From contig JANMQY010000038.1 of assembly GCA_031370785.1 (NCBI GenBank), forward strand, positions 1-49,569: 49,569 bases of DNA, given 5' to 3'. A program made the position numbers and the translations under genes. Below are positions 2,344 to 36,801 of the stretch, piece by piece (position 1 is the first letter of the stretch; every line of letters starts with the position of its first letter). The DNA comes from Candidatus Eiseniibacteriota bacterium (lineage in GTDB: Bacteria; Eisenbacteria; RBG-16-71-46). The notes under the pieces are model-generated. The model searched no databases, had not been told where the DNA came from, and saw only the letters and a program-made list of their open reading frames with translations.

Positions 2344-4536
2344 CTAGCGGCGCCGGCCGCGATCCCGATCTCCGCCACGGCCGCGATCTCCGCCGCGCTC
2401 GCGGTCCCGATCCCGGCCTCCGCCACTGCCCGCGGCGGCCGCCACGTAGCCCTCGGGCTCCGGTAGCAACGCCTTGCGCGACAGCTTGATCTTGCCGTCC
2501 CGGTCCACCCCGATGACCTTCACCATCACCATGTCGCCGACGTTGAGCACGTCCTCAGTGCGGGCCACCCGGTGGTAGTCGATCTCGGAGATGTGCAACA
2601 GGCCGTCCCGGCCGGGGACGATCTCCACGAAGGCGCCAAAAGCGACAACGCTGCGTACCTTGCCCTGGTACGTCTTGCCCACCTCCGGATCTTCGGTGAT
2701 GTTGCGGATCATCTCCTCGGCGCGCCGGCCGCCTTCGCCGTTGACCGCCGCAATCCGCACCTCGCCCGAGTCCTCGATGTCGATCTGCGTCCCAGTCTCC
2801 TCGGTGATGCGCTTGATGATCTTGCCCCCGGGACCGATGACTTCGCGGATCTTGTCGGGGTTGATGTGCATGATGATGATGCGCGGGGCGTACGGTGACA
2901 TCTCGGCGCGCGGAGCGGGGAGGGTCTGCTCCATGATCGCGAGAATGTGCATGCGGCCCTTCCGCGCCTTCTCGAGCGCGTTCATCATCACGTCGAACGA
3001 GATCCCGCCGATCTTGGTGTCCATCTGGAATGCGGTGACACCGTCACGCGTTCCGGTCACCTTGAAATCCATGTCGCCGAGGTGATCCTCGACGCCGAGG
3101 ATGTCGGCGAGCACTGCGACCTTCTCGCCTTCCTTGATCAGGCCCATCGCGATGCCCGCGACCGGCGCCTTGATCGGGCAGCCCGCGTCCATCAGGGCCA
3201 TCGAGCCGCCGCACACCGACGCCATCGAGGACGAACCGTTCGACTCGAGGATGTCGCTCACGATGCGAATGGTGTAGGGGAAGGTGGTGTCGGCCGGGAT
3301 GACCGGCTCGATCGCGCGCTCGGCCAGGGCGCCGTGCCCGATCTCGCGCCGGCCCGGGCCGCGGATGGGACGGGTCTCGCCCACCGAGAACGGCGGAAAG
3401 TTGTAGTGCAGCATGTAGGACTTCCACGACTGGCCTTCCAGCTCCTCGACGCGCTGCTCGTCGCTCTTGGTGCCGAGCGTGGCCACGACCATCGCCTGGG
3501 TCTCTCCGCGCGTGAACAGGCACGAGCCGTGCGTGCGCGGCAGGACGCCGACCTCGATCGTGATCTTGCGGATGTCGTCGAGCCCACGGCCGTCGGCGCG
3601 CACTCCTTCGTCGAGCACCATCAGGCGAAGCTGCTCGCGCTCGATGTCGTGGAGGATCTTGCCGATGAAGCTCGCCTGCTCGGCGTACTTCTCGGACAGC
3701 GCCGCGGTGGCCTCGCTGGTGATGATGTCCAGCTCCTCCTGGCGCGCGTCCTTGCCCGGAATGCGGATGGCCTGGCGGATGCGGCCGGTATGGCCGGCGA
3801 CCAGCTCGTTGCGCAGCGCGGAGGTATCGATCCCCTCGAGCAGCGGACGCTTGGGCTTGCTGCGACCCCGCATCAGGTCGTGCTGGACCGCGACGATCCG
3901 GCGGATGTGCCCCATCGCGAACTCGAGCGCCCGGATCAGGTCGGCTTCGGGAACCTCGCGGCTGCCGCCCTCGACCATGATGATGTTGTCGGCGGTACCG
4001 GCCACGATGACGTCCATGTCGCTCTCGTCGAGCTGGGTGAACGTCGGATTGACGATGAGTTGTCCGTCCACGCGGCCGACTCGCACCGCGGCAACCGGCT
4101 CGGGAAACGGAATGTCGGAGAGGTTGATCGCCGCGGATGCGCCGATCAGCGCGAGCACGTCCGCGTCGTTCTCCTGATCCGACGACATGACGGTCGCCAT
4201 GATCTGCGTTTCATACGGGAATTGCTTGGAAAACAGCGGCCGGATCGGGCGATCGATCTGCCTCGAGCTCAGCGTTTCCTTCTCGGTCGGGCGCCCTTCG
4301 CGCTTGAAGAATCCACCGGGGATCTTGCCCGCGGCATAGGTGCGCTCGCGGTAGTCCACCGTGAGGGGGACGAAATCCAGGTTGGGCTTCGCGACCTTCG
4401 ACGCGCTCGCCGCAACCAGCACGACCGTGCCACCGAGCTGCACCACGGCGGAACCACCGGCGAGCTTGGCCATCTTGCCCGTGCTGATCGTGAGTTCCTG
4501 GTCCCCCAGCTGTACGGATACCTTGTGCTCTGCCAT
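2344..4536 (-). CDS. pnp: Polyribonucleotide nucleotidyltransferase (PNPase)
   Basis: GKIPGGFFKREGRP, RREIGHGALAE, ESNGSSSMAS, DHLGDMDFKV; KH and S1 domains. Confidence 0.98.
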   Translation of the reverse strand: MAEHKVSVQLGDQELTISTGKMAKLAGGSAVVQLGGTVVLVAASASKVAKPNLDFVPLTVDYRERTYAAGKIPGGFFKREGRPTEKETLSSRQIDRPIRPLFSKQFPYETQIMATVMSSDQENDADVLALIGASAAINLSDIPFPEPVAAVRVGRVDGQLIVNPTFTQLDESDMDVIVAGTADNIIMVEGGSREVPEADLIRALEFAMGHIRRIVAVQHDLMRGRSKPKRPLLEGIDTSALRNELVAGHTGRIRQAIRIPGKDARQEELDIITSEATAALSEKYAEQASFIGKILHDIEREQLRLMVLDEGVRADGRGLDDIRKITIEVGVLPRTHGSCLFTRGETQAMVVATLGTKSDEQRVEELEGQSWKSYMLHYNFPPFSVGETRPIRGPGRREIGHGALAERAIEPVIPADTTFPYTIRIVSDILESNGSSSMASVCGGSMALMDAGCPIKAPVAGIAMGLIKEGEKVAVLADILGVEDHLGDMDFKVTGTRDGVTAFQMDTKIGGISFDVMMNALEKARKGRMHILAIMEQTLPAPRAEMSPYAPRIIIMHINPDKIREVIGPGGKIIKRITEETGTQIDIEDSGEVRIAAVNGEGGRRAEEMIRNITEDPEVGKTYQGKVRSVVAFGAFVEIVPGRDGLLHISEIDYHRVARTEDVLNVGDMVMVKVIGVDRDGKIKLSRKALLPEPEGYVAAAAGSGGGRDRDRERGGDRGRGGDRDRGRRR

Positions 4537-13144: not shown

Positions 13145-16100
13145 TCAGAATGTGAATTGTGCGCGCAGCTCGACGCGCACGTTTCGCCGCACGATGCCGG
13201 TCTGCAGCTCGCGGGTCTGGCCGAAGCCGAGCAGGGCATTGCCGGTGACGTTGCTGCTGAATCCGTAGGATCCGGTCCCGTTCACCGAGAGCCGGTCGTC
13301 ACCGACCGGGAACTGTGGACGATTGTTGCCTTCGCGCAGCGTCTCGCCGGTGCGCCGGTTGTACTCCGCCGAGAACCCGAGATTCACGGTGGTGCGCACC
13401 GTGGTCTGCTTGCCGAGCAGATTCACCTTCTGCCCCTGGGTGTAGGTCCGGTTGATGCCGAGCTGAACGCGGGCGCGTCGCTCGGTCGTGATCGACCGGC
13501 CGAACTGCAGGTTCTCGCGCCGGGTCACCGTCCGCTCCATCTTGAGCTGGGTGCGCGTCCCGTTCTTCAGCGAGCCGTCGATGTCGAGCGGATGGAGCTC
13601 GCTGCTGACCGCGATCGTGAACGGATCGGTGTCGTTGCGGTATTCGGTCTCGCGCGAGCGGCTGTAGCTGGTGGTGAAGCGCGGCTCGCGCAGCACGCGG
13701 CTCACCTGCAGGATCTGCGGGACGCGCCCGTACTCCACATCGAAGTCCGGGAAGCGCGTACGAATCACCCGGCCGATCACGTCATTGGTGTTGCTGCGAT
13801 GCCACGTGTACTCGCCGCGGGTCCCGATCGATGCGCCGCCCCCCATCGCGAGCCGGGTGCGGGCGGCGGCGCGCGCGTCCTGATTCTTGCTCGACTGATT
13901 GGCGATCTGCTCGGCCACATGATTGCCGCCGAATCCCGGGTCGCTGCTCAGCCCGACCAGGTACAACGCGCTCGGGTTCCCGGTGAGCCGGGAGTAGTTG
14001 CTGCTGGTCGTGAAGGAGGCCTCGGTGCTCAGTGCGCCGAGCCGCGAGAGGATCGAGGAGATCGAAGATCGGCGCGGCCGGGCGCGGCCGCTGTCCGCCG
14101 GGCTCGGCGCGGCGACCTGCCCCTGCGGAAGGGCGAGCTGATCGAACGGCACGTTCCAGGTGAAGGAAGTGGTCTGCGAGTTGCCGATCGCGCGAATGCT
14201 CAGGTCCTGCGAGAGCTCGGGACCGTTGCTCTGTGCATAGCCCGAGCTCCAGGTGAGCGAAGGAGTCACCCACTTGCTGCGTTTGAGGGCGTAGTGCGCA
14301 TCCATGCTCTGACGCCAGCTGACCAGCCGCCCAAGATTGATGAAGCCGATCTTCTGAGTGAGATCCTCGCTCAGCGTGAGATTGCGCACGCCTTCGAAGT
14401 GGTGGTGGAGCAGATCGAACGGACGGGTGTCGGCGCCGAAGTTGATGTATGCGATACGTCCCTTGGTCAGGTTGCGAAGCACCAGGGATCCAGTCGAGTC
14501 GCGGTTGCGATCGTAGGTACGGCTCTCGCGCGTGGCCAGTGAGTAATTCCAGTAGATGCGTTCCGGCAGCGGGAACAGGCGCAGCTTGGTGCCGGGCATC
14601 GGGACCGTCAGCAGATTGCGGGGGGTGATCGAGTAGTTGACCGCGGCGCCGACCGAGGTGGACGTATCCACCGTGCTCGGGTTGCGGCTCACGGTACGCG
14701 AACGGCTGACGTTCGCGGTGATTCCTCCGACCGTATAGCGCAGGAACGGATTCGAGCGGTCGCTCCAGGTGCGCTGGTAGCTGGTGCTCCATGCCTGGGT
14801 CTCGCTGCGCGTCTCGCTGGCATCGGCCTGCGCCCCAATGCGCACGATGTCATCCCCGGCGCTGAAGCGCGGCTTCATCGAGGATCGCGCGTACGAGTAG
14901 CCGATCGGGATCACGATCCCGGTGCCCTCGAAGAAGCGGTGGAGGTCGACGCCGGTGTTGAAGTTGACCTGGCTCACGCTGACGCCCTGCCCGCGCGTCT
15001 CGCCCACGCTCAGGAAGTCGGCGTCGCGGCCGTTGTAGCTCAGGTTGTAGCTCAGAAGATTCGCCATGCGGCCGGTGACGAGGAATCGCTGGGCGTGCCC
15101 GACGTCCTTGGCCACGTCGATGGCGCGCAGTTCGTCGAACCAGAGCTGCCCGCGCGGGTAGACGCGGTTGCTGTCGGCGTGGGTGTTGATCAGACCGAAC
15201 GACACGCGCCGGATCCGGGTGAACGAGGGCCGCCCCTTGATGGTGTAGAGCTCGCCCGGATTGGGACCGGGGGCCCGATAGAGAATCGGGTCGATCTTCG
15301 GAAAATCCGGATTCTGCTTCAGGTTCGAGAGGTCGATGAGCTTGAGCTGCACTTCTTTCCAGTCCACCCCGCCGACCACGTGCGGCAGCGGCGCGCGGTA
15401 TTCGTAGTAGTTGTTTCCGATCTCGTCCGACGAGAAACGCACGAAGTACGCGAGCGAGTCCGCGGACGGGTTGTAGTCGAGCACGCCGAAGCCGCTCGCG
15501 AACCAGTCCAGCTTGCCGTAGCGCGTGTAATCCTCGTCGATCGAGAAGGTCTTGAATCCCTCGAGCGTCTGCCCGGCGCGCAGGTTGGTGAACTCGAGCG
15601 CGACCGACTGTTCGCGCCGCGTGATCGCCTGGTTGTTGTTGCGGGTCTGGCCGGGATCGAAAGGCGCCACGTAGGTGTCGGCGTTGTCGAGGGTGTTCAC
15701 CGAATTGAGTGTGAGCGTGGTGCCGCGCTCGGCCACCGAGTCGGGCAGGATCGTCGCCTGCCAGCGGCTTCCCACGATGTCGAGCGCTCCCAGCATGAGC
15801 ATCGGCCTGACCACGGCGTGCGCGAGATCGGACGCGCCGGTCAGCGCCAGCACGCTGTCCGGATCGGGATCGGTGTTGACGATGCCCTCGATCCACACCC
15901 GGACGTGCTGGGCCAGCGTCAGGTCGGGCAGTCCGAACGCGACTCGAAGCGAGTCGTTGAGCGGAATGCGATAGCGCCGCCATCCGTTGTCCGGGGTCAC
16001 GTTGGGATTGCCCGGGTAGTCGCGCTGCACATCGGTCTGAAGGTAGGGCGAGGCAGCGTCTCCCAGATCGATCGTGTACTCGAAGTAGTCCTCGCGCGTC

Positions 16101-19100
16101 TCGAGAATGCCGTTGAGGTTCAAATCCTCGGTGTCCGGATTTGGATTTCCTCCGATGCGGTTGTTCTCGATGCCGTTCGTGAACCGGTAGCGCCGTGGAT
16201 CGATCTCGTCCTTGGCCGCGTTGTCGTCGGTGTTGTGGAAATCGTCGCCCTCCGGATCCGAAGAGCCCGCCGTCACCAGATCGCGCTGTGGACCGGTTTC
16301 CCGCGCCGCGTTCGAAGGCAGCTGATCGGTGGAGTTCGGCGAGAATTTGTTGTCGACTCCGCTGTCCTCGTTGACGTTGTCGTTGGCGGCCATCTTCCCG
16401 TCGCGATCCGGCAGGTCTTCGCTGTTGAGGAGCGTGTCGGGCGGCACGTCCGGGGAGCGCATCTGATCCTCGCTCACCCGGCCGAGATCGATGTGCAGCT
16501 TGAGGCGCCGGCCCCTCACCCGCGGCTCGGAATACCCCTTGATATGCTCGTCGTTGAAATCGTTCACCCACAGCTCGATGAACTGGGAGCGAGAGATGTC
16601 GAGCCCCACGTTGTCGAGCGGATAGGTGAGTCCTGCCCACAGTGTGTCGTAGTTGCCGCCTGCGAAATTATTTTTGGCCGTCTGCGGACGTTCCGGCACC
16701 GAGAGCGCGAGCACCTGCCGGGTCACGTCGCCACCCTCGGCCTGCTTGAGATTGGGCTTGAGCTGCCGGTCCTTGACCGCCGTCGGCGGCGAGAACCAGT
16801 GGATTTCCGCGTTGTGCTGCCGGGGGATATCGAGGCTATCGAGGAACGAGCGCGGAATCGCACCCACGTAGCGGCTGGGAACGCTGGACAGGGTCCAGCG
16901 CTCGCGACCCATGGAGAGCGATACGGCATCGCGCACGCCCTCCATGTCGTCGATGAACACCTCGTTCCGGGTGTTGGGATTGGGGAAGGATGCGCCGAGC
17001 TCGGCCTGCACCCGGAAATCCGAAGGCGCGGTGGTGCGCACCCCGGGCAGGCGGTCCACGAGCCGCGTGATCCACTGCGGATGCGCGCCCCAGTCGCCGT
17101 TCAGATCGGCGATCAGGCTGCGCGAAGGCTCCTCTCCCAGGCGCGGACGCAGATCCTGCGCCCCGCGGCTCTCGTAGAGAAAGGCGCCGCCCAGGCTCTT
17201 CTCACGCCCCTCGAGCCGGAAAGCGCTCCCGACCAGGGTGCGTCCCGCCTGCTGGAACAGCGGCGCGTAGGCGTAGTTGATGTTGAGCTGGTCGGCGGGG
17301 CCCACGCCGCGGATCAGCTTCACCCGCCCGGTGTCGTAGTCGATGGTGTAGTCGCGGTCGCGGACCAGCGTCTGATCGTTGATCGTGACCACGTCCGAGC
17401 CTTCGAGGATCTGCCCGCGCCCGAGTTGAATCTCGTTGCCGACACCCGCGGCGGTGAAGTCGGTGTTGATGGTGTACAGGTATTGAAGATTGGGCTGGCG
17501 GGCGTACGTTTCGTAGATCTTGGAGTTCGCGGCGTTCTGCATCGAGTCGACGGTTCCGATCAGTGAGTCCCGTCGCGAGAGAAAGCTGGCCAGGTACTGG
17601 TCGAAGGCGCGCGCCCTGGGTCCGACCAGGCGCGGCGCGAAAGGACGCAGGTCGAAGAGGAACAGCGTGCCGTTGTCGTAGTCCACAAACACCTTGAACT
17701 TGCTGTCCGGCGCGCTGCCATCGATCCTGTTGTCGTGCTCGCCGAACCGGGGCGTTCCGGAGGTTTCGTCGAAGTTGTCCAGACCCACCGCCTCGATGTA
17801 CGGAACCGGCGTGCCGCCGCCCTTGAAGATCGCGGTGACTGGCGGATCGAAGCTCCCCTTCTCGATGACCAGGCTGAAAGACTTGGGATCGATGCGCTGC
17901 CCGCCCAGCCGGTAGAAGTTGCGCAGTTCGAGCTCGCGGGTCGCGTTCATGCGCGCGGTGTCGGAATAGAAGATGTTGCCCTCGATGTTGATCTTGGGCA
18001 GATCCGCTTCGCGCGGCTTGGTCAGCTTGAGCGATCGCACGCCCAGGGTGTCCCTGCCGCCGTACAGAGTGGTGGGTCCCACCCGCTGACCCGCCGAGTT
18101 CACCGGAGTGCCGGCGAACGAGACGGCCAGCACCTGATCGGCGGGCAGCGCGTCGCGAAGCTTGATGACCTTGTAGAAGGGCCCGTACGGCTGGATGATC
18201 TCGTAGTCCTTGTCCGGCCCCGGCTCGAGCCGCTTGAACGAGCCGCGGATCGAGGTCGTGTCGCCTCCGACGGCCGGATCCGCGTTCGGATCGAGGAATG
18301 CGCGCCCGAACACCGTATTCACGTTCGAGCTGTAGGTGTTGAGGTCGCGGTACACGCGGATGGTGCTGTCCTGCACCTCGAGGGCGGGAGAAAGATTCCC
18401 GTCGTACAGGAAGAAATAGGTGGACTCGATGTACTGGCCATCGAGGATCCGGTTGGTCTGCCGCGACGAACCGCCCGAGTAGGACGCGCGCTCGCTGCGT
18501 CCCTCCTGTTTGCTGGCCAGCAGCGTCATGTCGAGCGGCCCAAGCCGTCCGGCGGCCTTGATTCCAAACAGGCCCTCGTTCTTGCCGCTGTACGACACGT
18601 ACTGGGTGCCGGGCAGCGACAGGTTGGTGTTTCCGAGGTCGAACTCCTGGATCAGGTCGTCCTCGTCGCCCTTGTAGTTGATCGCGATCCGGTTCGCGAG
18701 CGGCACGGTGTTGGTCGAGTTCTGCAGCAGGTTCACCTTGATCCGGTCGCTGAGCTGGCCTTCCAGGCGGATGTCGAGGTTCTGCTGCATGTCGAGCGAG
18801 GGAAACAACGAGCGCTTCTGCCCGAACTGGCCGAGCTGCTGGTTGGTCCAGTCGCTCTGACCCGACAGCTGGATGCTCTCGGAGCCCGACACGTTGAGTG
18901 CGGGTCCGCCGGGGCCGAGCAGGTTCTGGATCCTGGGCGGCAGTGGCGAGGGCAGCTTGAACGAGAAGCCGGGCTGCGACCCCTGATACTGAGGCGTATT
19001 CGCGCCGAGGTTGTTGAGCTTCTCGCGCGTGACCTGGGCCCATGCCTTCTGGAAGTTCCGCGCGAACATCTCGCGCGAATAGTCGAGAAGCGACTCGCGC

Positions 19101-19399
19101 ATCGGCGCGCTCACGTCCACCGAGTTGATCTGCGCGCTCGACGCGAGGCTCGGCACTGCGACGTCGAAGCGCACGTCGATCCGCCGCGGATCATCGGGGC
19201 GGATCGCGAGGCGCGTGAAACGCGGGCCGAGCCTGGGGAGCGCGGAGGTGACGAACTGGTCCTCGAGCGCCAGGCGGGACGCGCTGCGCCACGCCAGCGG
19301 CAGGGTATCGGCAGGCGCTGGGTGTGCGGCGTGCTTCATGCCGAACCCGGGAAAGGAGAATAGAAATACGAGCGCTGCTGGAGCGAGAGAGGTCAGCAT
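13145..19399 (-). CDS. sprA: SprA/Sov-like very large outer-membrane beta-barrel (type IX secretion translocon homolog)
   Basis: 2084 aa. SprA-like segments: IAINYKGDEDDLIQEFDLGNTNLSLPGT, GLFGIK, DYTIDYDTGRV, RPRLGEEP, FIDDMEG, LHIDLGRVSED, DTEDLNLNG, GWRRYRIPL, GQLWFDELR. C-terminal beta-strands end in Phe. Confidence 0.88.
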   Translation of the reverse strand: MLTSLAPAALVFLFSFPGFGMKHAAHPAPADTLPLAWRSASRLALEDQFVTSALPRLGPRFTRLAIRPDDPRRIDVRFDVAVPSLASSAQINSVDVSAPMRESLLDYSREMFARNFQKAWAQVTREKLNNLGANTPQYQGSQPGFSFKLPSPLPPRIQNLLGPGGPALNVSGSESIQLSGQSDWTNQQLGQFGQKRSLFPSLDMQQNLDIRLEGQLSDRIKVNLLQNSTNTVPLANRIAINYKGDEDDLIQEFDLGNTNLSLPGTQYVSYSGKNEGLFGIKAAGRLGPLDMTLLASKQEGRSERASYSGGSSRQTNRILDGQYIESTYFFLYDGNLSPALEVQDSTIRVYRDLNTYSSNVNTVFGRAFLDPNADPAVGGDTTSIRGSFKRLEPGPDKDYEIIQPYGPFYKVIKLRDALPADQVLAVSFAGTPVNSAGQRVGPTTLYGGRDTLGVRSLKLTKPREADLPKINIEGNIFYSDTARMNATRELELRNFYRLGGQRIDPKSFSLVIEKGSFDPPVTAIFKGGGTPVPYIEAVGLDNFDETSGTPRFGEHDNRIDGSAPDSKFKVFVDYDNGTLFLFDLRPFAPRLVGPRARAFDQYLASFLSRRDSLIGTVDSMQNAANSKIYETYARQPNLQYLYTINTDFTAAGVGNEIQLGRGQILEGSDVVTINDQTLVRDRDYTIDYDTGRVKLIRGVGPADQLNINYAYAPLFQQAGRTLVGSAFRLEGREKSLGGAFLYESRGAQDLRPRLGEEPSRSLIADLNGDWGAHPQWITRLVDRLPGVRTTAPSDFRVQAELGASFPNPNTRNEVFIDDMEGVRDAVSLSMGRERWTLSSVPSRYVGAIPRSFLDSLDIPRQHNAEIHWFSPPTAVKDRQLKPNLKQAEGGDVTRQVLALSVPERPQTAKNNFAGGNYDTLWAGLTYPLDNVGLDISRSQFIELWVNDFNDEHIKGYSEPRVRGRRLKLHIDLGRVSEDQMRSPDVPPDTLLNSEDLPDRDGKMAANDNVNEDSGVDNKFSPNSTDQLPSNAARETGPQRDLVTAGSSDPEGDDFHNTDDNAAKDEIDPRRYRFTNGIENNRIGGNPNPDTEDLNLNGILETREDYFEYTIDLGDAASPYLQTDVQRDYPGNPNVTPDNGWRRYRIPLNDSLRVAFGLPDLTLAQHVRVWIEGIVNTDPDPDSVLALTGASDLAHAVVRPMLMLGALDIVGSRWQATILPDSVAERGTTLTLNSVNTLDNADTYVAPFDPGQTRNNNQAITRREQSVALEFTNLRAGQTLEGFKTFSIDEDYTRYGKLDWFASGFGVLDYNPSADSLAYFVRFSSDEIGNNYYEYRAPLPHVVGGVDWKEVQLKLIDLSNLKQNPDFPKIDPILYRAPGPNPGELYTIKGRPSFTRIRRVSFGLINTHADSNRVYPRGQLWFDELRAIDVAKDVGHAQRFLVTGRMANLLSYNLSYNGRDADFLSVGETRGQGVSVSQVNFNTGVDLHRFFEGTGIVIPIGYSYARSSMKPRFSAGDDIVRIGAQADASETRSETQAWSTSYQRTWSDRSNPFLRYTVGGITANVSRSRTVSRNPSTVDTSTSVGAAVNYSITPRNLLTVPMPGTKLRLFPLPERIYWNYSLATRESRTYDRNRDSTGSLVLRNLTKGRIAYINFGADTRPFDLLHHHFEGVRNLTLSEDLTQKIGFINLGRLVSWRQSMDAHYALKRSKWVTPSLTWSSGYAQSNGPELSQDLSIRAIGNSQTTSFTWNVPFDQLALPQGQVAAPSPADSGRARPRRSSISSILSRLGALSTEASFTTSSNYSRLTGNPSALYLVGLSSDPGFGGNHVAEQIANQSSKNQDARAAARTRLAMGGGASIGTRGEYTWHRSNTNDVIGRVIRTRFPDFDVEYGRVPQILQVSRVLREPRFTTSYSRSRETEYRNDTDPFTIAVSSELHPLDIDGSLKNGTRTQLKMERTVTRRENLQFGRSITTERRARVQLGINRTYTQGQKVNLLGKQTTVRTTVNLGFSAEYNRRTGETLREGNNRPQFPVGDDRLSVNGTGSYGFSSNVTGNALLGFGQTRELQTGIVRRNVRVELRAQFTF

Positions 19400-31691: not shown

Positions 31692-31838
31692 GATCAGAAA
31701 GCCTAGCATGCGAGCTCCGCACGCCGCCAATGCGCCCGCAATCGATGCGCAGTACGAATCGCGCCGATTCCGGGTAGAGTGTTCGGGAATGCGCGTGGTA
31801 AACCTCACCACCGATTCGTGGAACGAGGGGGATATCGG

Positions 31839-33251
<1,413 letters not shown>

Positions 33252-33432
33252 CCACTCCCGACAAACTCAACGCTGACAGACGGTTCGGCTGGAACGCCCG
33301 ACCGGGTCGGGGTCTTTCCGTCCCATCTCGCGCGGGATCGCGCATGCCTGCCGACCGTTTTGGAGCGCCGGCAATCCCGCGAAGACGCTGAGGCCCAACC
33401 GCTTCAAGATAATTTCAGGGATGCCGGTGCTC

Positions 33433-33449
33433 TTGGCACCGTCGGTGCT
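33433..33449 (+). promoter_or_regulatory. sigma54 (-24/-12) promoter
   Basis: TTGGCAC-CGTCG-GTGCT has exact GG-N10-GC spacing and one mismatch to TGGCAC-N5-TTGC. An AT-rich patch lies upstream at 33403-33417. Confidence 0.7.
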
Positions 33450-33459
33450 CTTGTACGTG

Positions 33460-33649
33460 ATCGAGGCAGCGTCCGAGAGACGCGCCGCCAGTGCAGGGCG
33501 GTCGGACCTACAGCGGTTCGATCGAAGTACCCAGGCGAACGATCTCTGCCGTCACGACGAGAAAGACCGGAAGATCCGAGGGGCCGGTCCGGATCGTCAG
33601 AGGCGGCAGTATCGAAGCGGGGAGCGCAAGCTCCCCGCTTCACTTTTTT
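33460..33649 (+). ncRNA. Putative ~190-nt sigma54-dependent structured small RNA
   Basis: Bounded by the sigma54 promoter and a terminator. Contains no ATG. Folds into three short hairpins and one long interrupted hairpin. Confidence 0.6.
33614..33649 (+). terminator. Intrinsic terminator
   Basis: 12-bp stem GAAGCGGGGAGC/GCTCCCCGCTTC with a GCAA tetraloop, followed by ACTTTTTT. Confidence 0.85.
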
Positions 33650-33685
33650 CCCGCGATGCTCTGGCTCGAAGCTCGGCGCCGTTGT

Positions 33686-35446
33686 TCAGCGTCCGCGCCG
33701 CCTGCCGCGGCGCCCATAGCTGGGTCGCTGTGGCTCGGCGGGAGCGGGCGACTCGCGCTCGTGCGAGAACAGCGATCCCGGCGCCTGCTCGTGCTCATCG
33801 GAATCAGCCGGATCTTCAGAGGGCGACCGCGCCTCGCGGGCCCACGAGTCCTTGGGTCGATCCGCCTCCTCAAGCTCCGCGCTCTCGACCCACGACTCCC
33901 CGGTTTCCGCTGCTTCCCACCTCGGCTCGATCTCCCTTGCCGGGCGTTCCACCCGCTCGACGGCTGCGGCATCGCGCGAGGGCGGCGCGGGCGGATCCCA
34001 TGCGTAAGGATCGACGTGCCGGTCTTCGAGCGGACCATCGGGCCGCCCGACCTCCTCGTCGTCATCCTCTTCGTACGCCGGGGGGATCGGTTCGACCTCG
34101 TTGGACGGCTGGACCGGCGTGGTCGAGATCGCGCGGGGCACGCTCACTCTCGACTCGAAGCGCCGCGGCACGTCGCGATCGGATCCGACGGAGGAGCGGG
34201 GTTCGGTCCGCTCGACGCTTGCTCTGGGCTCGTCCAACTCCTCGTCCTCGCGCACGCTTTCGACTTCCGGCACGCGCGGGGGTAGAACGGGCGGCGGCAC
34301 AACCTGCTCGCGGGGCCTGCGACCGCGCCCTCCGCGGCGACCGCGACGGCGGCGGCCGCTTTCCACCTCGTCGCCTTCTCCGAGATCGACGGTCCCCGGC
34401 TGGACCGGAGCTGCGGACTGCGCCGGCGGGCGCGGGCTTCGTTCGCCCCGATCACCCCGCTCGACTCGCTCACCCCTTGGCTCACGATCGCGACGTGGCT
34501 CGCGCTCAGCGCGTGAGTCCCGCTCCGATCTCGGCTCGCGTTCGATGCGCGCCTCGCGCACGTCACGGGCGTCGCGCGCCTCGGTCTCCGATTCGTGCGG
34601 CGCTCCGACCTTCTCGAGTGCATCGCGCGCGGCAGCCTGCTCCGCTTCCTTCTTGTTTCGCCCCTTGCCCGAGCCGAGCATGCGCTTGCCCACCATCACC
34701 TCGACCAGGAACTGCTTCGAGTGATCCGGCCCCACCTCGCTGCGGATGCGATACACCGGATGGGTGTGGAAGGTGCTCTGCACGTACTCCTGCAGGTGGC
34801 TCTTGTAGTTGGTGTGGCGCTTGTCGGCCGCGATCTCGCGCGAGTCCTTGAGCAGCCAGCGATGGATGAAGGTGCGCGCCGCCTCGAAGCCCTGGTCCAG
34901 GTAGACCGCGCCCACCACCGACTCGAACGCGTCGGCGAGGATGGACAGCCGCTGCCGCCCGCCCGACTCGACCTCGGAGTGACTCATCAGCACGAAGCGC
35001 CCGAGACCCATGGCCAGGGCGCGCCGCGAGAGGATCGCCTTGGAGACCAGCAGCGACTTGGTCTTGGTGAGCTGGCCCTCGTGTTCGTCGGGGTGCTGGC
35101 GGTACAGGAACTCGCTGGTCACGAGCCCGAGCACGGAGTCGCCAAGGAATTCGAGGCGCTCGTTGGATTCGCGCGGACCCTGCCCGGTCACGCTCAGGTA
35201 CGAGCGGTGGGTCAGGGCCAGCTTGAGCAGCCCGGGGTCCTTGAACGTGAGGTCGTAGTGCGTGCAGAACTCCGCGATCGCGCGCGCTTCCTGCTCGCTC
35301 AGCGAACGCGGCCGCTCGCCGCGGATTCGCGGCGCCCGAAACAGGCTCTTCAGCCAGCTCCACAGCGAGAAGCTGCGGCGCGGAGGTTGCGGGCGCGGGC
35401 CGCCACGGCTGCGGCCGCGACCGCCGCGACGGCGGGAGCGGCCTAC
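33686..35446 (-). CDS. rnc: Ribonuclease III with a long disordered C-terminal extension; start codon uncertain
   Basis: ALTHRSY, NERLEFLGDSVL, ADAFESVVGAVYLD, dsRBD (NYKSHLQE...KKEAEQAAA). No in-frame ATG/GTG/TTG between the fabF stop and the catalytic core. Confidence 0.92.
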   Translation of the reverse strand, partial: VGRSRRRGGRGRSRGGPRPQPPRRSFSLWSWLKSLFRAPRIRGERPRSLSEQEARAIAEFCTHYDLTFKDPGLLKLALTHRSYLSVTGQGPRESNERLEFLGDSVLGLVTSEFLYRQHPDEHEGQLTKTKSLLVSKAILSRRALAMGLGRFVLMSHSEVESGGRQRLSILADAFESVVGAVYLDQGFEAARTFIHRWLLKDSREIAADKRHTNYKSHLQEYVQSTFHTHPVYRIRSEVGPDHSKQFLVEVMVGKRMLGSGKGRNKKEAEQAAARDALEKVGAPHESETEARDARDVREARIEREPRSERDSRAEREPRRDREPRGERVERGDRGERSPRPPAQSAAPVQPGTVDLGEGDEVESGRRRRGRRGGRGRRPREQVVPPPVLPPRVPEVESVREDEELDEPRASVERTEPRSSVGSDRDVPRRFESRVSVPRAISTTPVQPSNEVEPIPPAYEEDDDEEVGRPDGPLEDRHVDPYAWDPPAPPSRDAAAVERVERPAREIEPRWEAAETGESWVESAELEEADRPKDSWAREARSPSEDPADSDEHEQAPGSLFSHERESPAPAEPQRPSYGRRGRRRGR

Positions 35447-36690
35447 GCCGCCACGGCCTCCATCGCCAGAGTTACGTTGTGACCCCCGAACCCGAACGAG
35501 TTCGAGAGGGCGCCCTTCACGCGGAGCGTTCGGGCCTGATGGGGAATGAAGTCTAGGTCGCATTGTGGATCCGGTTTGTCCAGGTTGATCGTAGGTGGGA
35601 TGACCCCGCGCTTGAGCGCGAGAGCGGTGATGACCGCTTCGAGTCCGCCGGCGGCACCCAGCAGGTGGCCGGTCATGGACTTGGTGGAACCCATCATGAG
35701 ACGGCGGGCGTGATCCCCGAACACCGACTTCACCGCGACCACTTCGATGGGGTCGCCGGTGGGTGTCGATGTGCCGTGGGAATTGATATAGCCCACATCT
35801 TCCAGAGCCATGCCGGCGTCCTGAAGCGCGCGCTTCATCGCGCGCGCCGCGCCGTTCCCGTCCCCGCATGGGGCGGTCATGTGGTAGGCATCTCCGGAAG
35901 CGCCGTAGCCCGTGAGTTCACACAGGAGCGGTGCACCGCGTCGCCGGGCGTGTTCCTCGGTCTCGAGGATCACCACACCGGCCCCTTCGCCGAGCACGAA
36001 GCCGTCCCGGTCCTGGTCGAACGGACGGCTGGCTCGCTGAGGGTCATCGTTTCGGGTGGAAAGTGCGCGCATGTTGCCGAAGCCGGCAAGGGCCATCGGC
36101 GAGATGGTCGCTTCCGCACCGCCCGCGAGGATCACGTCGGCATCGCCCGCGCGCAGCAGGCGCAGGGCTTCGCCGATCGCATGCGCCCCTGAGGCGCACG
36201 CCGAGACGGTACAGAAATTCGGACCGCGGAGGCCGAACTGGATCGATACCAGCCCCGCCGCCATGTCCGAGATCATCATCGGGATGAAGAATGGACTCAC
36301 TCGTCCGTGACCCTTCTCCATGAGAATGGTGTGCTGGGTCTCGAACGTTTCCATGCCACCGATGCCCGAGCCGATGATGACACCGACGCGGTCGCGGTCG
36401 GTTCGCTCGAGATCGAGGCCGGAGTTCTTCAGCGCTTCGTGGCTGGCCACCACCGCAAACTGTACGAAGCGATCCATGCGCTTCGCGTCCTTGCGGTCGA
36501 TGACGCCTTCGGTGGTGAAGTTCTTGACCTCACACGCGAAGCGCGTCCCGTAGCCGGAGGCGTCGAACCGAGTGATCGGCCCGGCGCCGGACTTGCCGGC
36601 CACGAGATTCTTCCAGAACTCCTCGGTGTCGTTGCCGAGCGGCGAAACCACGCCGCCTGCGGTCACGAACACCCGGTGTCCATTCGACAT
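35443..36690 (-). CDS. fabF: 3-oxoacyl-ACP synthase II
   Basis: SACASG (Cys), NSHGTST, GHLLGAAG, NSFGFGG. Confidence 0.96.
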   Translation of the reverse strand: MSNGHRVFVTAGGVVSPLGNDTEEFWKNLVAGKSGAGPITRFDASGYGTRFACEVKNFTTEGVIDRKDAKRMDRFVQFAVVASHEALKNSGLDLERTDRDRVGVIIGSGIGGMETFETQHTILMEKGHGRVSPFFIPMMISDMAAGLVSIQFGLRGPNFCTVSACASGAHAIGEALRLLRAGDADVILAGGAEATISPMALAGFGNMRALSTRNDDPQRASRPFDQDRDGFVLGEGAGVVILETEEHARRRGAPLLCELTGYGASGDAYHMTAPCGDGNGAARAMKRALQDAGMALEDVGYINSHGTSTPTGDPIEVVAVKSVFGDHARRLMMGSTKSMTGHLLGAAGGLEAVITALALKRGVIPPTINLDKPDPQCDLDFIPHQARTLRVKGALSNSFGFGGHNVTLAMEAVAA

Positions 36691-36801
36691 GTGCGTCCTT
36701 CCCCTCGTGCTCGGCTGCCGGGCTGGCCGCGGCGCGGGCACCGCCCTCGGGGGCGATGTGCGCGCCTGCGGCCCCCAGCCACCGCGCCGTATGCTGCCGC
36801 T

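Follow-up and report, generated by a model that had tools for sequence, protein, structure and literature searches.

The window analysed here, a whole stretch of 49,569 nucleotides (nt) from a Candidatus Eiseniibacteriota bacterium (assembly GCA_031370785.1, contig JANMQY010000038.1, positions 1 to 49,569 of the forward strand), carries an rnc gene whose product, RNase III, continues for 307 amino acids (aa) past its double-stranded RNA (dsRNA)-binding domain (dsRBD). The analysis confirmed this tail as a real, conserved, disordered, Arg- and acid-rich region of about 300 residues with short motifs, found in an uncultured soil/sediment lineage. Our preferred reading, to which we give a probability of roughly one half, is that the protein combines a standard RNase III core with lineage-specific disordered flanks, the tail acting as an RNase E-like hub for multivalent RNA binding and docking. 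The rnc coding sequence was placed at 33686..35563 on the minus strand (625 aa plus stop, with the start taken as ATG 35563) and its stop codon at 33686-33688. The tail (33689..34609, minus strand; residues 319-625) was characterized by the predicted local distance difference test (pLDDT), by charge and hydropathy, and by the ratio of nonsynonymous to synonymous substitution rates (dN/dS). The first-pass annotation had described a frame running about 300 codons past the dsRBD (33686..34600); the count was 307 codons at 33689-34609, and every string it quoted (EREPRSERDSRAEREPRRDREPRGER, GRRRRGRRGGRGRR, YGRRGRRRGR, EEDDDEE, DPYAWD, ESWVE and DSWARE) was found in the translation.

The RNase III catalytic domain (34844..35239, minus strand; residues 109-240) was identified by Pfam and by alignment to chain 1o0w (E = 5.4e-44). 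The dsRBD (34610..34807, minus strand; residues 253-318) matched PF00035 with 64.2 bits against a cut-off of 23 and ended at residue 318 of 625, window position 34610. Ribonucleas_3_3 (PF14622) scored 128.5 bits (cut-off 35) and Ribonuclease_3 (PF00636) 80.7 bits (cut-off 27); five Pfam families matched at E <= 0.01, all of RNase III or dsRBD type. The signature NERLEFLGD and the string ADAFES were read in the protein sequence. Each RNase III family matched one stretch of the chain, and the paired RNase III domains of the Drosha/Dicer type were not found. By its catalytic domain, signature and single dsRBD, the protein is, as judged from sequence, a bacterial class-1 RNase III and presumably a homodimer; at 625 aa it exceeds the class-1 size of about 220-250 aa ending at the dsRBD, a size that is typical and not strictly defining. 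Solved bacterial RNase III chains were 220-252 aa long and aligned to residues ~87-321 only, showing that the premise of the earlier annotation, that a bacterial RNase III of about 230 aa normally ends at the dsRBD, holds.

When AlphaFold2 was run with a 71-row alignment, most residues between 90 and 320 had a pLDDT >90, and most of those from 320 to 625 fell below 50. Within the tail, the highest values (54-63) lay over an acidic-aromatic motif described below as motif 2; the tail was modelled as coil throughout, with pLDDT <65. On the charge-hydropathy measure the tail had a value of 0.331 versus a boundary of 0.435, which is on the disordered side, and the two methods therefore agreed on the predicted disorder. 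Among the 307 tail residues there were 56 R, 51 E, 42 P, 24 D and a single K, with a net charge of -18, or -0.06 per residue, and a charged fraction of 0.43. The tails of 27 species were similar, with a median charged fraction of 0.42, a net charge per residue of -0.07 and 13% hydrophobic residues. Their ratio of R to K was 1170:51. The folded core used both residues (R 8.1%, K 6.3%), indicating that the Arg bias of the tail was not merely an effect of GC content. Local net charge per residue ranged from +0.32 at residues 401-425 to -0.28 at residues 501-525. The earlier description of the charge pattern as blocky was overstated, however; segregation reached z = 1.74, and 109 of 2000 shuffles were at least as segregated. 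The tail has local cationic and acidic patches without strong blockiness.

A word-indexed homologue search covering proteins of 343-1094 aa (E <= 0.001, 8000 candidates scored) returned 593 matches. Ten of the best 120 of these 593 were dropped for failing the dsRBD anchor pattern; the tail was kept in all 110 that could be anchored, with a median of 266 aa and a range of 32-352, and the shortest tails looked by eye like truncated gene calls. NCBI names were attached to 14 of the 120 listed homologues, 10 of them Candidatus Eisenbacteria and four from other phyla; these four were 69-91% identical to the query and may be binning errors. We also read 28 rnc loci in species-representative genomes of the same family (f1), of which 27 were complete and one was cut by a contig end. 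In all 27 complete loci the tail was kept with an unbroken frame, at lengths of 198-368 aa. The tail and its conserved short motifs are thus retained among relatives, as the first-pass annotation had anticipated. Two other sequencing runs, one belonging to a separate study, yielded contigs with near-identical DNA over the tail; these contigs covered 33614-34802 and 33614-34552 with 1-4 letters different. Recurrence in relatives, together with these contigs, effectively excluded a lost stop or a mis-assembly. High-GC genomes do yield long spurious frames, and the same frame stays open upstream across fabF, but no direct support was found for an artefact in which a lost stop, a frameshift or a mis-assembly fused non-coding sequence to rnc. 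The architecture recurred in hundreds of independent assemblies as well as in every complete f1 genome, and the near-identical contigs came from two studies, so we consider such an artefact extremely improbable.

Compared with four relatives, dN/dS was 0.08-0.20 in the core, 0.33-0.50 in the tail and 0.23-0.63 in residues 41-95. The tail figures point to coding-type constraint, which the earlier annotation had named as a check on the tail, and are rough because the alignments were near saturation (dS about 1.3) and had 43-69 gapped codons. Third-position GC (GC3) was 0.77 in the tail versus 0.92 in the core. First-position GC in the tail was 0.82, as expected from its run of Arg, Glu, Pro, Ala, Asp and Gly codons. 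The conservation pattern is a stronger argument for constraint than the tail dN/dS. In an alignment of 71 sequences, the tail positions that were invariant or at least 90% conserved fell into clusters at 406-415, 506-507 and 617-622, with five scattered prolines in addition, and G617 was invariant. These observations bear on the proposal that the tail is a functionless low-complexity expansion, in which slippage-prone, GC-rich repeats grew past the dsRBD and were tolerated. Weak tandem repeats in the tail DNA (an 18-nt unit at 34467-34515), obvious short-period repeats in the tails of family f2 of the same class, the variation of tail length from 198 to 368 aa within one family and a dN/dS above that of the core would all fit such growth. 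Against it stand the conserved islands across the family and the terminal motif kept in 102/110 homologues, dN/dS below 1 in all four comparisons, the frame unbroken in 27/27 complete genomes, and composition and net charge held within narrow bounds in 27 species. A functionless expansion is already disfavoured, and we regard it as improbable.

Several short elements were distinguished along the tail. It opened with a well-mixed mixed-charge R/E/D segment (34439..34588, minus strand; residues 326-375), at the start of which a helix was predicted at residues 323-340 with pLDDT 56-59. Arg/Gly box 2, GRRRRGRRGGRGRR, followed at 34316..34357 (minus strand; residues 403-416); its strict pattern was present in 72/110 homologues and in 18 of the 27 complete f1 genomes. 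Acidic stretches with single Trp residues occupied residues 551-600. Directly before the stop, the terminal motif YGRRGRRRGR (33689..33718, minus strand; residues 616-625) was the most widely kept element; an aromatic-G-[RQ]-[RK] pattern occurred within the last 25 residues of 102/110 homologues and 26 of the 27 complete f1 genomes.

Acidic-aromatic motif 2, NEVEPIPPAYEEDDDEEVGRPDGPLEDRHVDPYAWDPP, lay between box 2 and the terminal motif (33989..34102, minus strand; residues 488-525). Its f1 consensus was xExEPxPPAYEEDExEEVGRPEGPLEERHVDP, in which GRP was invariant in 18/18 aligned sequences. The element GRP[ED]G[PR] was found in 82/110 homologues and [VI][DE]P[YF] in 83/110. Motif 2 was present in 17 of the 27 complete f1 genomes; the other 10 kept the tail without it. 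A profile of the motif had no match besides rnc in the six frames of its own genome. Searched against 1.84 billion representative proteins, it returned 61 matches at E <= 0.001, two of which were known full-length rnc proteins and 59 of which were fragments of the same tail. Among the 59 fragments, 55 ended in the terminal motif and 14 included RNase III core sequence; by eye, three started with unrelated sequence and may be chimeric calls. All matches were thus RNase III tail sequences, showing that motif 2 is private to this RNase III, and its absence from other proteins means that it gives no clue to a partner by association.

An element confined to one protein is also what would be expected if it acted within that protein. 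In a self-regulating tail, the acidic motif or acidic stretches would fold back on the Arg/Gly boxes, the dsRBD or the catalytic valley and so gate access of RNA, perhaps on a cue such as salt, polyanions or a modifying enzyme, in place of the recruitment of proteins. Strongly cationic boxes do lie beside acidic stretches, as the local charge values show (+0.32 versus -0.28), and model confidence within the tail rose at the acidic motif alone (pLDDT 54-63). Yet the model contained no confidently docked structure, the tail being all coil with pLDDT <65, and 10 of the 27 complete f1 genomes kept the tail without the acidic motif. Self-regulation by folding back seems unlikely to us.

The distribution of the tail was examined in a phylum sample of 201 genomes, all from one class, 186 of which had an RNase III match; all 20 of the loci fetched, from seven families, were read. 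Family f1 was long-tailed at 8/8 loci. The three f2 loci (L040, L041 and L042) were long-tailed as well, at about 400-440 aa, with short-period R/E/D/P repeats; ERPERG- or REER-like units were seen in them, and their N-terminal extensions contained RD/RE repeats. Two of the three shared a different conserved C-terminal end (...WDE.PKEH), which the third was without. Two of the three f2 loci showed neither the RGG box nor motif 2 nor the terminal motif; the third (L041) had a similar Arg/Gly run. By sequence, then, f1 and f2 elaborated the tail differently. In family f7, tails were intermediate at 3/3 loci (72-135 aa) and started with the same Arg/Gly box as in f1. In family f3 all three enzymes were short, with 11-12 residues past the core; a 671-aa frame there was rejected as a long form because it was an upstream artefact. 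Single loci were short in f4 and in f13, and the one from f14 had 62 aa. The short forms in sister families were about 245 aa. The succession of short, intermediate and long families indicates that the tail grew stepwise, with the Arg/Gly box first.

The apparent age of the boxes is relevant to another explanation, in which the tail tethers RNase III to nascent pre-rRNA or pre-ribosomes and plays no part in an mRNA decay complex. Eukaryotic nucleolar proteins carry acidic-plus-RGG tails that act as analogous tethers. Within the tail, the Arg/Gly boxes arose first and make up most of the f7 tails, and KhpB/Jag, likewise an RNA-binding protein, has the same box. Maturation of rRNA is, according to PMC10989914, the common conserved job of bacterial RNase III. 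Nothing in the sequence was specific to rRNA, however, and we think a ribosome-biogenesis tether a poor prospect, on a par with self-regulation.

The first-pass annotation had recognized the C-terminal tail and missed both an N-terminal extension of about 95 aa ahead of the catalytic domain and an overlap of rnc with fabF. The fabF gene was located at 35443-36741 on the minus strand. The longest minus-strand open reading frame (ORF) at this site was 33686-35869 (727 aa), the first 426 nt of which traverse fabF. The stretch from the fabF stop to the RNase III domain contained no in-frame ATG, GTG or TTG, and the candidate starts were ATG 35563, 121 nt inside fabF, and GTG 35191, inside the catalytic domain. 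We took ATG 35563 as the probable start, giving a predicted product of 625 aa and an out-of-frame overlap of 121 nt (35443..35563, minus strand) in which the rnc 5' end lies within the fabF 3' end. An in-frame ATG within fabF was present in 29/29 f1 genomes, the window counted in (loci of the relatives: L032-L039 and L052-L071). The overlap was 118 nt in 27 of these 29 and 121 nt in the window; at the odd one, L065, the pattern chose an ATG 184 nt upstream. In 24 of the 29 genomes there was no canonical start between the fabF stop and a Trp-rich motif of the extension, indicating that the N-terminal extension must be translated from inside fabF. The rnc ATG spans the conserved Cys codon of fabF, where an A-ending codon is used in a genome with GC3 around 0.9.

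Synonymous divergence was depressed in rnc codons 1-40, with dS of 0.16-0.31 versus 0.58-0.69 in the core. The conserved N-terminal peptide MRPR...LELVRVRG was considered as evidence of translation and rejected. It mirrors the conserved C-terminus of fabF in another frame, LELVRVRG being the other-frame reading of SNSFGFGG, and conservation of the first 40 codons alone is therefore no evidence that they are translated. The gene is present as a single rnc copy in the genome, positioned after acpP-fabF. Contigs from RNA libraries covered rnc, one of them 17 kb long; they originated from a relative of ~93% identity and may reflect DNA carry-over, and for these reasons were not counted as expression.

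Two elements stood out in the N-terminal extension. Arg/Gly box 1, GRSRRRGGRGRSRGG, occupied 35399..35443 (minus strand; residues 41-55). RRRGGR was found in 28/110 homologue gene calls, most of the other calls beginning further downstream, and the box was read in the loci of the family. The second element, FSLWSWLKSLF (35339..35371, minus strand; residues 65-75), is a Trp-rich amphipathic motif and a candidate membrane- or partner-binding helix. AlphaFold2 predicted a helix at residues 67-75 with pLDDT of about 72, and the hydrophobic moment of the motif ranged from 0.25 to 0.87 across relatives. In kind, and not by sequence comparison, it is similar to the amphipathic helices that target RNase E and MinD to the membrane. 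The motif was present in 24 of 28 f1 loci and in family f2, and in the short enzymes from families f3, f7 and f13 it formed the extreme N-terminus (e.g., MNFLWRWFG), showing that it is older than the tail.

The other RNases of the genome were without a scaffold tail, in agreement with what the first-pass annotation had suggested should be checked. RNase E/G was encoded by a single gene; its protein started ~47 codons into a 561-codon frame and ended at the small domain, giving ~515 aa of the RNase G type. RNase Y was ordinary, at ~520 aa with the usual N-terminal membrane helix. RNase J had no match in the genome, which was scored 100% complete. Across all families of the class, RNase E/G open frames were about 510-620 aa; longer outliers in relatives were rejected, since all three that were checked were non-coding 5' extensions with GC3 of about 0.5. 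A complementary pattern, with a long RNase E/G where RNase III is short, was not found across the families of the class. RNase E/G was equally short in the families with a short RNase III, showing that there was no complementary "scaffold swap"; and because relatives with a short RNase III had no RNase E-type tail either, the tail is an addition and not a visible replacement.

Two further RNA-binding proteins of the genome had Arg-rich disorder, which supports the hub reading. PNPase (window 2347-4536, minus strand) had an RD/RG tail of ~35 aa past its S1 domain, ending in ...GGRDRDRERGGDRGRGGDRDRGRRR, and an Arg/Asp/Gly tail was present in all 23 complete f1 sequences that were read. When the last 138 residues of the rnc tail and the genome's own PNPase were submitted to complex prediction, with both partners entered as alignments, the pair scored 0.26, the mark being 0.32, and this speaks neither for nor against binding. 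In at least 10 f1 genomes a single contig carried both rnc and pnp, separated by ~30 kb, a conserved gene order. KhpB/Jag (contig C108:18924-20732, minus strand; locus L031) carried an R/E/P-rich insert of ~330 aa between its Jag_N and R3H domains. This insert contained GRRRRRGRRGGRGR, which was near-identical to the Arg/Gly box of the rnc tail. The DNA of the two boxes was identical at 30/45 positions, indicating that they did not arise by recent duplication. Open-frame lengths suggested KhpB-type inserts in several families of the class, out of step with the rnc tail: f3, f10 and f13 had long KhpB frames and short rnc, and f7 had short KhpB and an Arg/Gly-tailed rnc. Co-distribution of the insert with the rnc tail was therefore rejected as not tightly linked, on open-frame lengths alone, which may be inflated.

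Rho and two DEAD-box helicases looked ordinary. Crude proteome-wide scans for charged disordered segments mostly matched upstream over-extensions of ORFs or frames belonging to no family. A stricter window scan returned only PNPase and rnc, and a C-terminal scan returned PNPase and two other ORFs, without rnc; both missed KhpB, showing that the scans were not exhaustive. In the ESM Atlas, the best look-alikes of the tail scored 0.80, no better than chance by the control that the tool itself supplies. Clusters containing RhlB C-terminal and RNase E PNPase-binding-region families appeared among lower rows (0.76-0.77), a weak lead.

The analysis established the gene structure, the disorder, the conservation pattern, the clade distribution and the lack of an RNase E-type tail elsewhere in the genome; RNA binding by the boxes, docking of partners and any role in a condensate or degradosome are inferences. 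In the hub reading, the extended protein would be translated in full, with a tail under selection, and the dimeric enzyme would still cut dsRNA through its ordinary core. Three conserved Arg/Gly boxes, in the N-terminal extension, in mid-tail and at the C-terminal end, amounting to six per dimer, would add multivalent contacts with RNA that are not sequence-specific. Docking of a partner or of the membrane would fall to the acidic-aromatic motif and perhaps also to the Trp-rich helix. The tail would thereby turn RNase III into a hub, following the logic of RNase E's non-catalytic region. A more specific form holds that RNase III, and not RNase E, Y or J, is the hub of this lineage, with the boxes, partner docking and the membrane helix assembling RNA-dependent foci together with Arg-tailed PNPase and KhpB. 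We consider this form doubtful; if true, RNase III would join the bacterial degradosome or condensate scaffolds as a fourth type, one that evolved independently and rests on a nuclease specific for dsRNA.

The suggestion of the first-pass annotation, that RNase III acts as a degradosome or condensate scaffold, is plausible. Retention, motifs, constraint, disorder and the tail-less state of the other RNases agree with it; the modest charge segregation and the lack of a swap pattern do not. Other observations also weigh against a hub. The tail dN/dS is rough, as noted above, and the RNA-library contigs over rnc derive from a relative. No partner was identified for the tail, and motif 2 occurs in no other protein family. 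No similarity to the RNase E tail families was found, Pfam reporting RNase III and dsRBD families only. RNase E/G is short class-wide, also where RNase III is short, and no compensation is visible. The f2 tails are equally long, but their motifs differ, hexapeptide-like R/E/D/P repeats taking their place; a tail can therefore exist without the specific motifs. This is as compatible with a bulk physical role, or with the expansion of repeats, as with a scaffold.

The non-catalytic region of Escherichia coli RNase E, as described in PMC4435900, embeds a membrane helix, two Arg-rich RNA sites and microdomains binding the helicase, enolase and PNPase in disorder, and evolves through gain and loss of motifs. 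The RNase III flanks resemble this region, as found in the E. coli degradosome and in the scaffolds of Caulobacter bacterial ribonucleoprotein bodies (BR-bodies), in being long, fast-evolving disorder on an endoribonuclease with Arg-rich segments, short microdomains that are conserved and a predicted amphipathic helix. In cyanobacterial RNase E, PNPase is bound by a conserved nonapeptide at the very C-terminus (PMC10989914); the most conserved motif of the RNase III tail is likewise terminal. Unlike in RNase E, the carrier here is a dsRNA-specific RNase III without sequence similarity to it, the amphipathic motif precedes the catalytic domain, and the charge blocks are weakly segregated. The protein shares its catalytic domain, signature motif and single dsRBD with canonical bacterial RNase III (1o0w, 7r97 and 2ez6), but has ~95 extra N-terminal and 307 extra C-terminal residues. 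Drosha has a Pro-rich and Arg/Ser-rich N-terminal region and two catalytic domains, and chain 5b16 of Drosha matched the core with E = 5.2e-42. Both are RNase III enzymes with a long Arg-/Pro-rich disordered extension; that of Drosha is N-terminal, whereas the bacterial protein also differs in having a single catalytic domain. Arg-rich disorder in the tails of RhlE helicases (PMC11260450) and in Helicobacter pylori RNase J (PMC7492731) is reportedly linked to phase separation or compartmentalized degradosomes. These too are cases of Arg/Gly-rich disorder added to an RNA enzyme, though theirs is shorter and sits on a helicase or RNase J. In the literature searched (RNase III disorder and extensions, BR-bodies, degradosome scaffolds and the lineage name, with subscription journals outside the coverage), no tailed bacterial RNase III was met.

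Downstream of rnc, a perfect GC-rich hairpin of 12 bp (33614..33641, strand unassigned) lay 45 nt past the stop codon. Its T-run followed on the plus strand only, hairpin and T-run together spanning 33614-33651; for rnc it would be a 3' hairpin without a U-tract, and it could mark an unannotated plus-strand transcript. The hairpin is contained in a 434-nt gap (33252-33685) between rnc and a convergent regulator gene (31779-33251, plus strand), which by eye is a sigma-54-type response regulator candidate. An Rfam scan of the whole window gave 0 matches. Elsewhere, the window holds an ORF of 2084 aa at 13145-19399 on the minus strand.

The bacterial RNA-decay scaffolds met in the literature have RNase E, RNase Y or RNase J as their base. 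A comparable extension on RNase III would mean that an enzyme specific for dsRNA can acquire this architecture too, and here the extension is conserved across an uncultured lineage without an RNase E-type tail. Within one class there is a natural series of enzymes with no tail, with an Arg/Gly tail of 70-135 aa and with a tail of 200-440 aa. Such a series makes it possible to ask how a well-understood enzyme gains from a tail, a question that recombinant proteins make testable although the organisms are uncultured.

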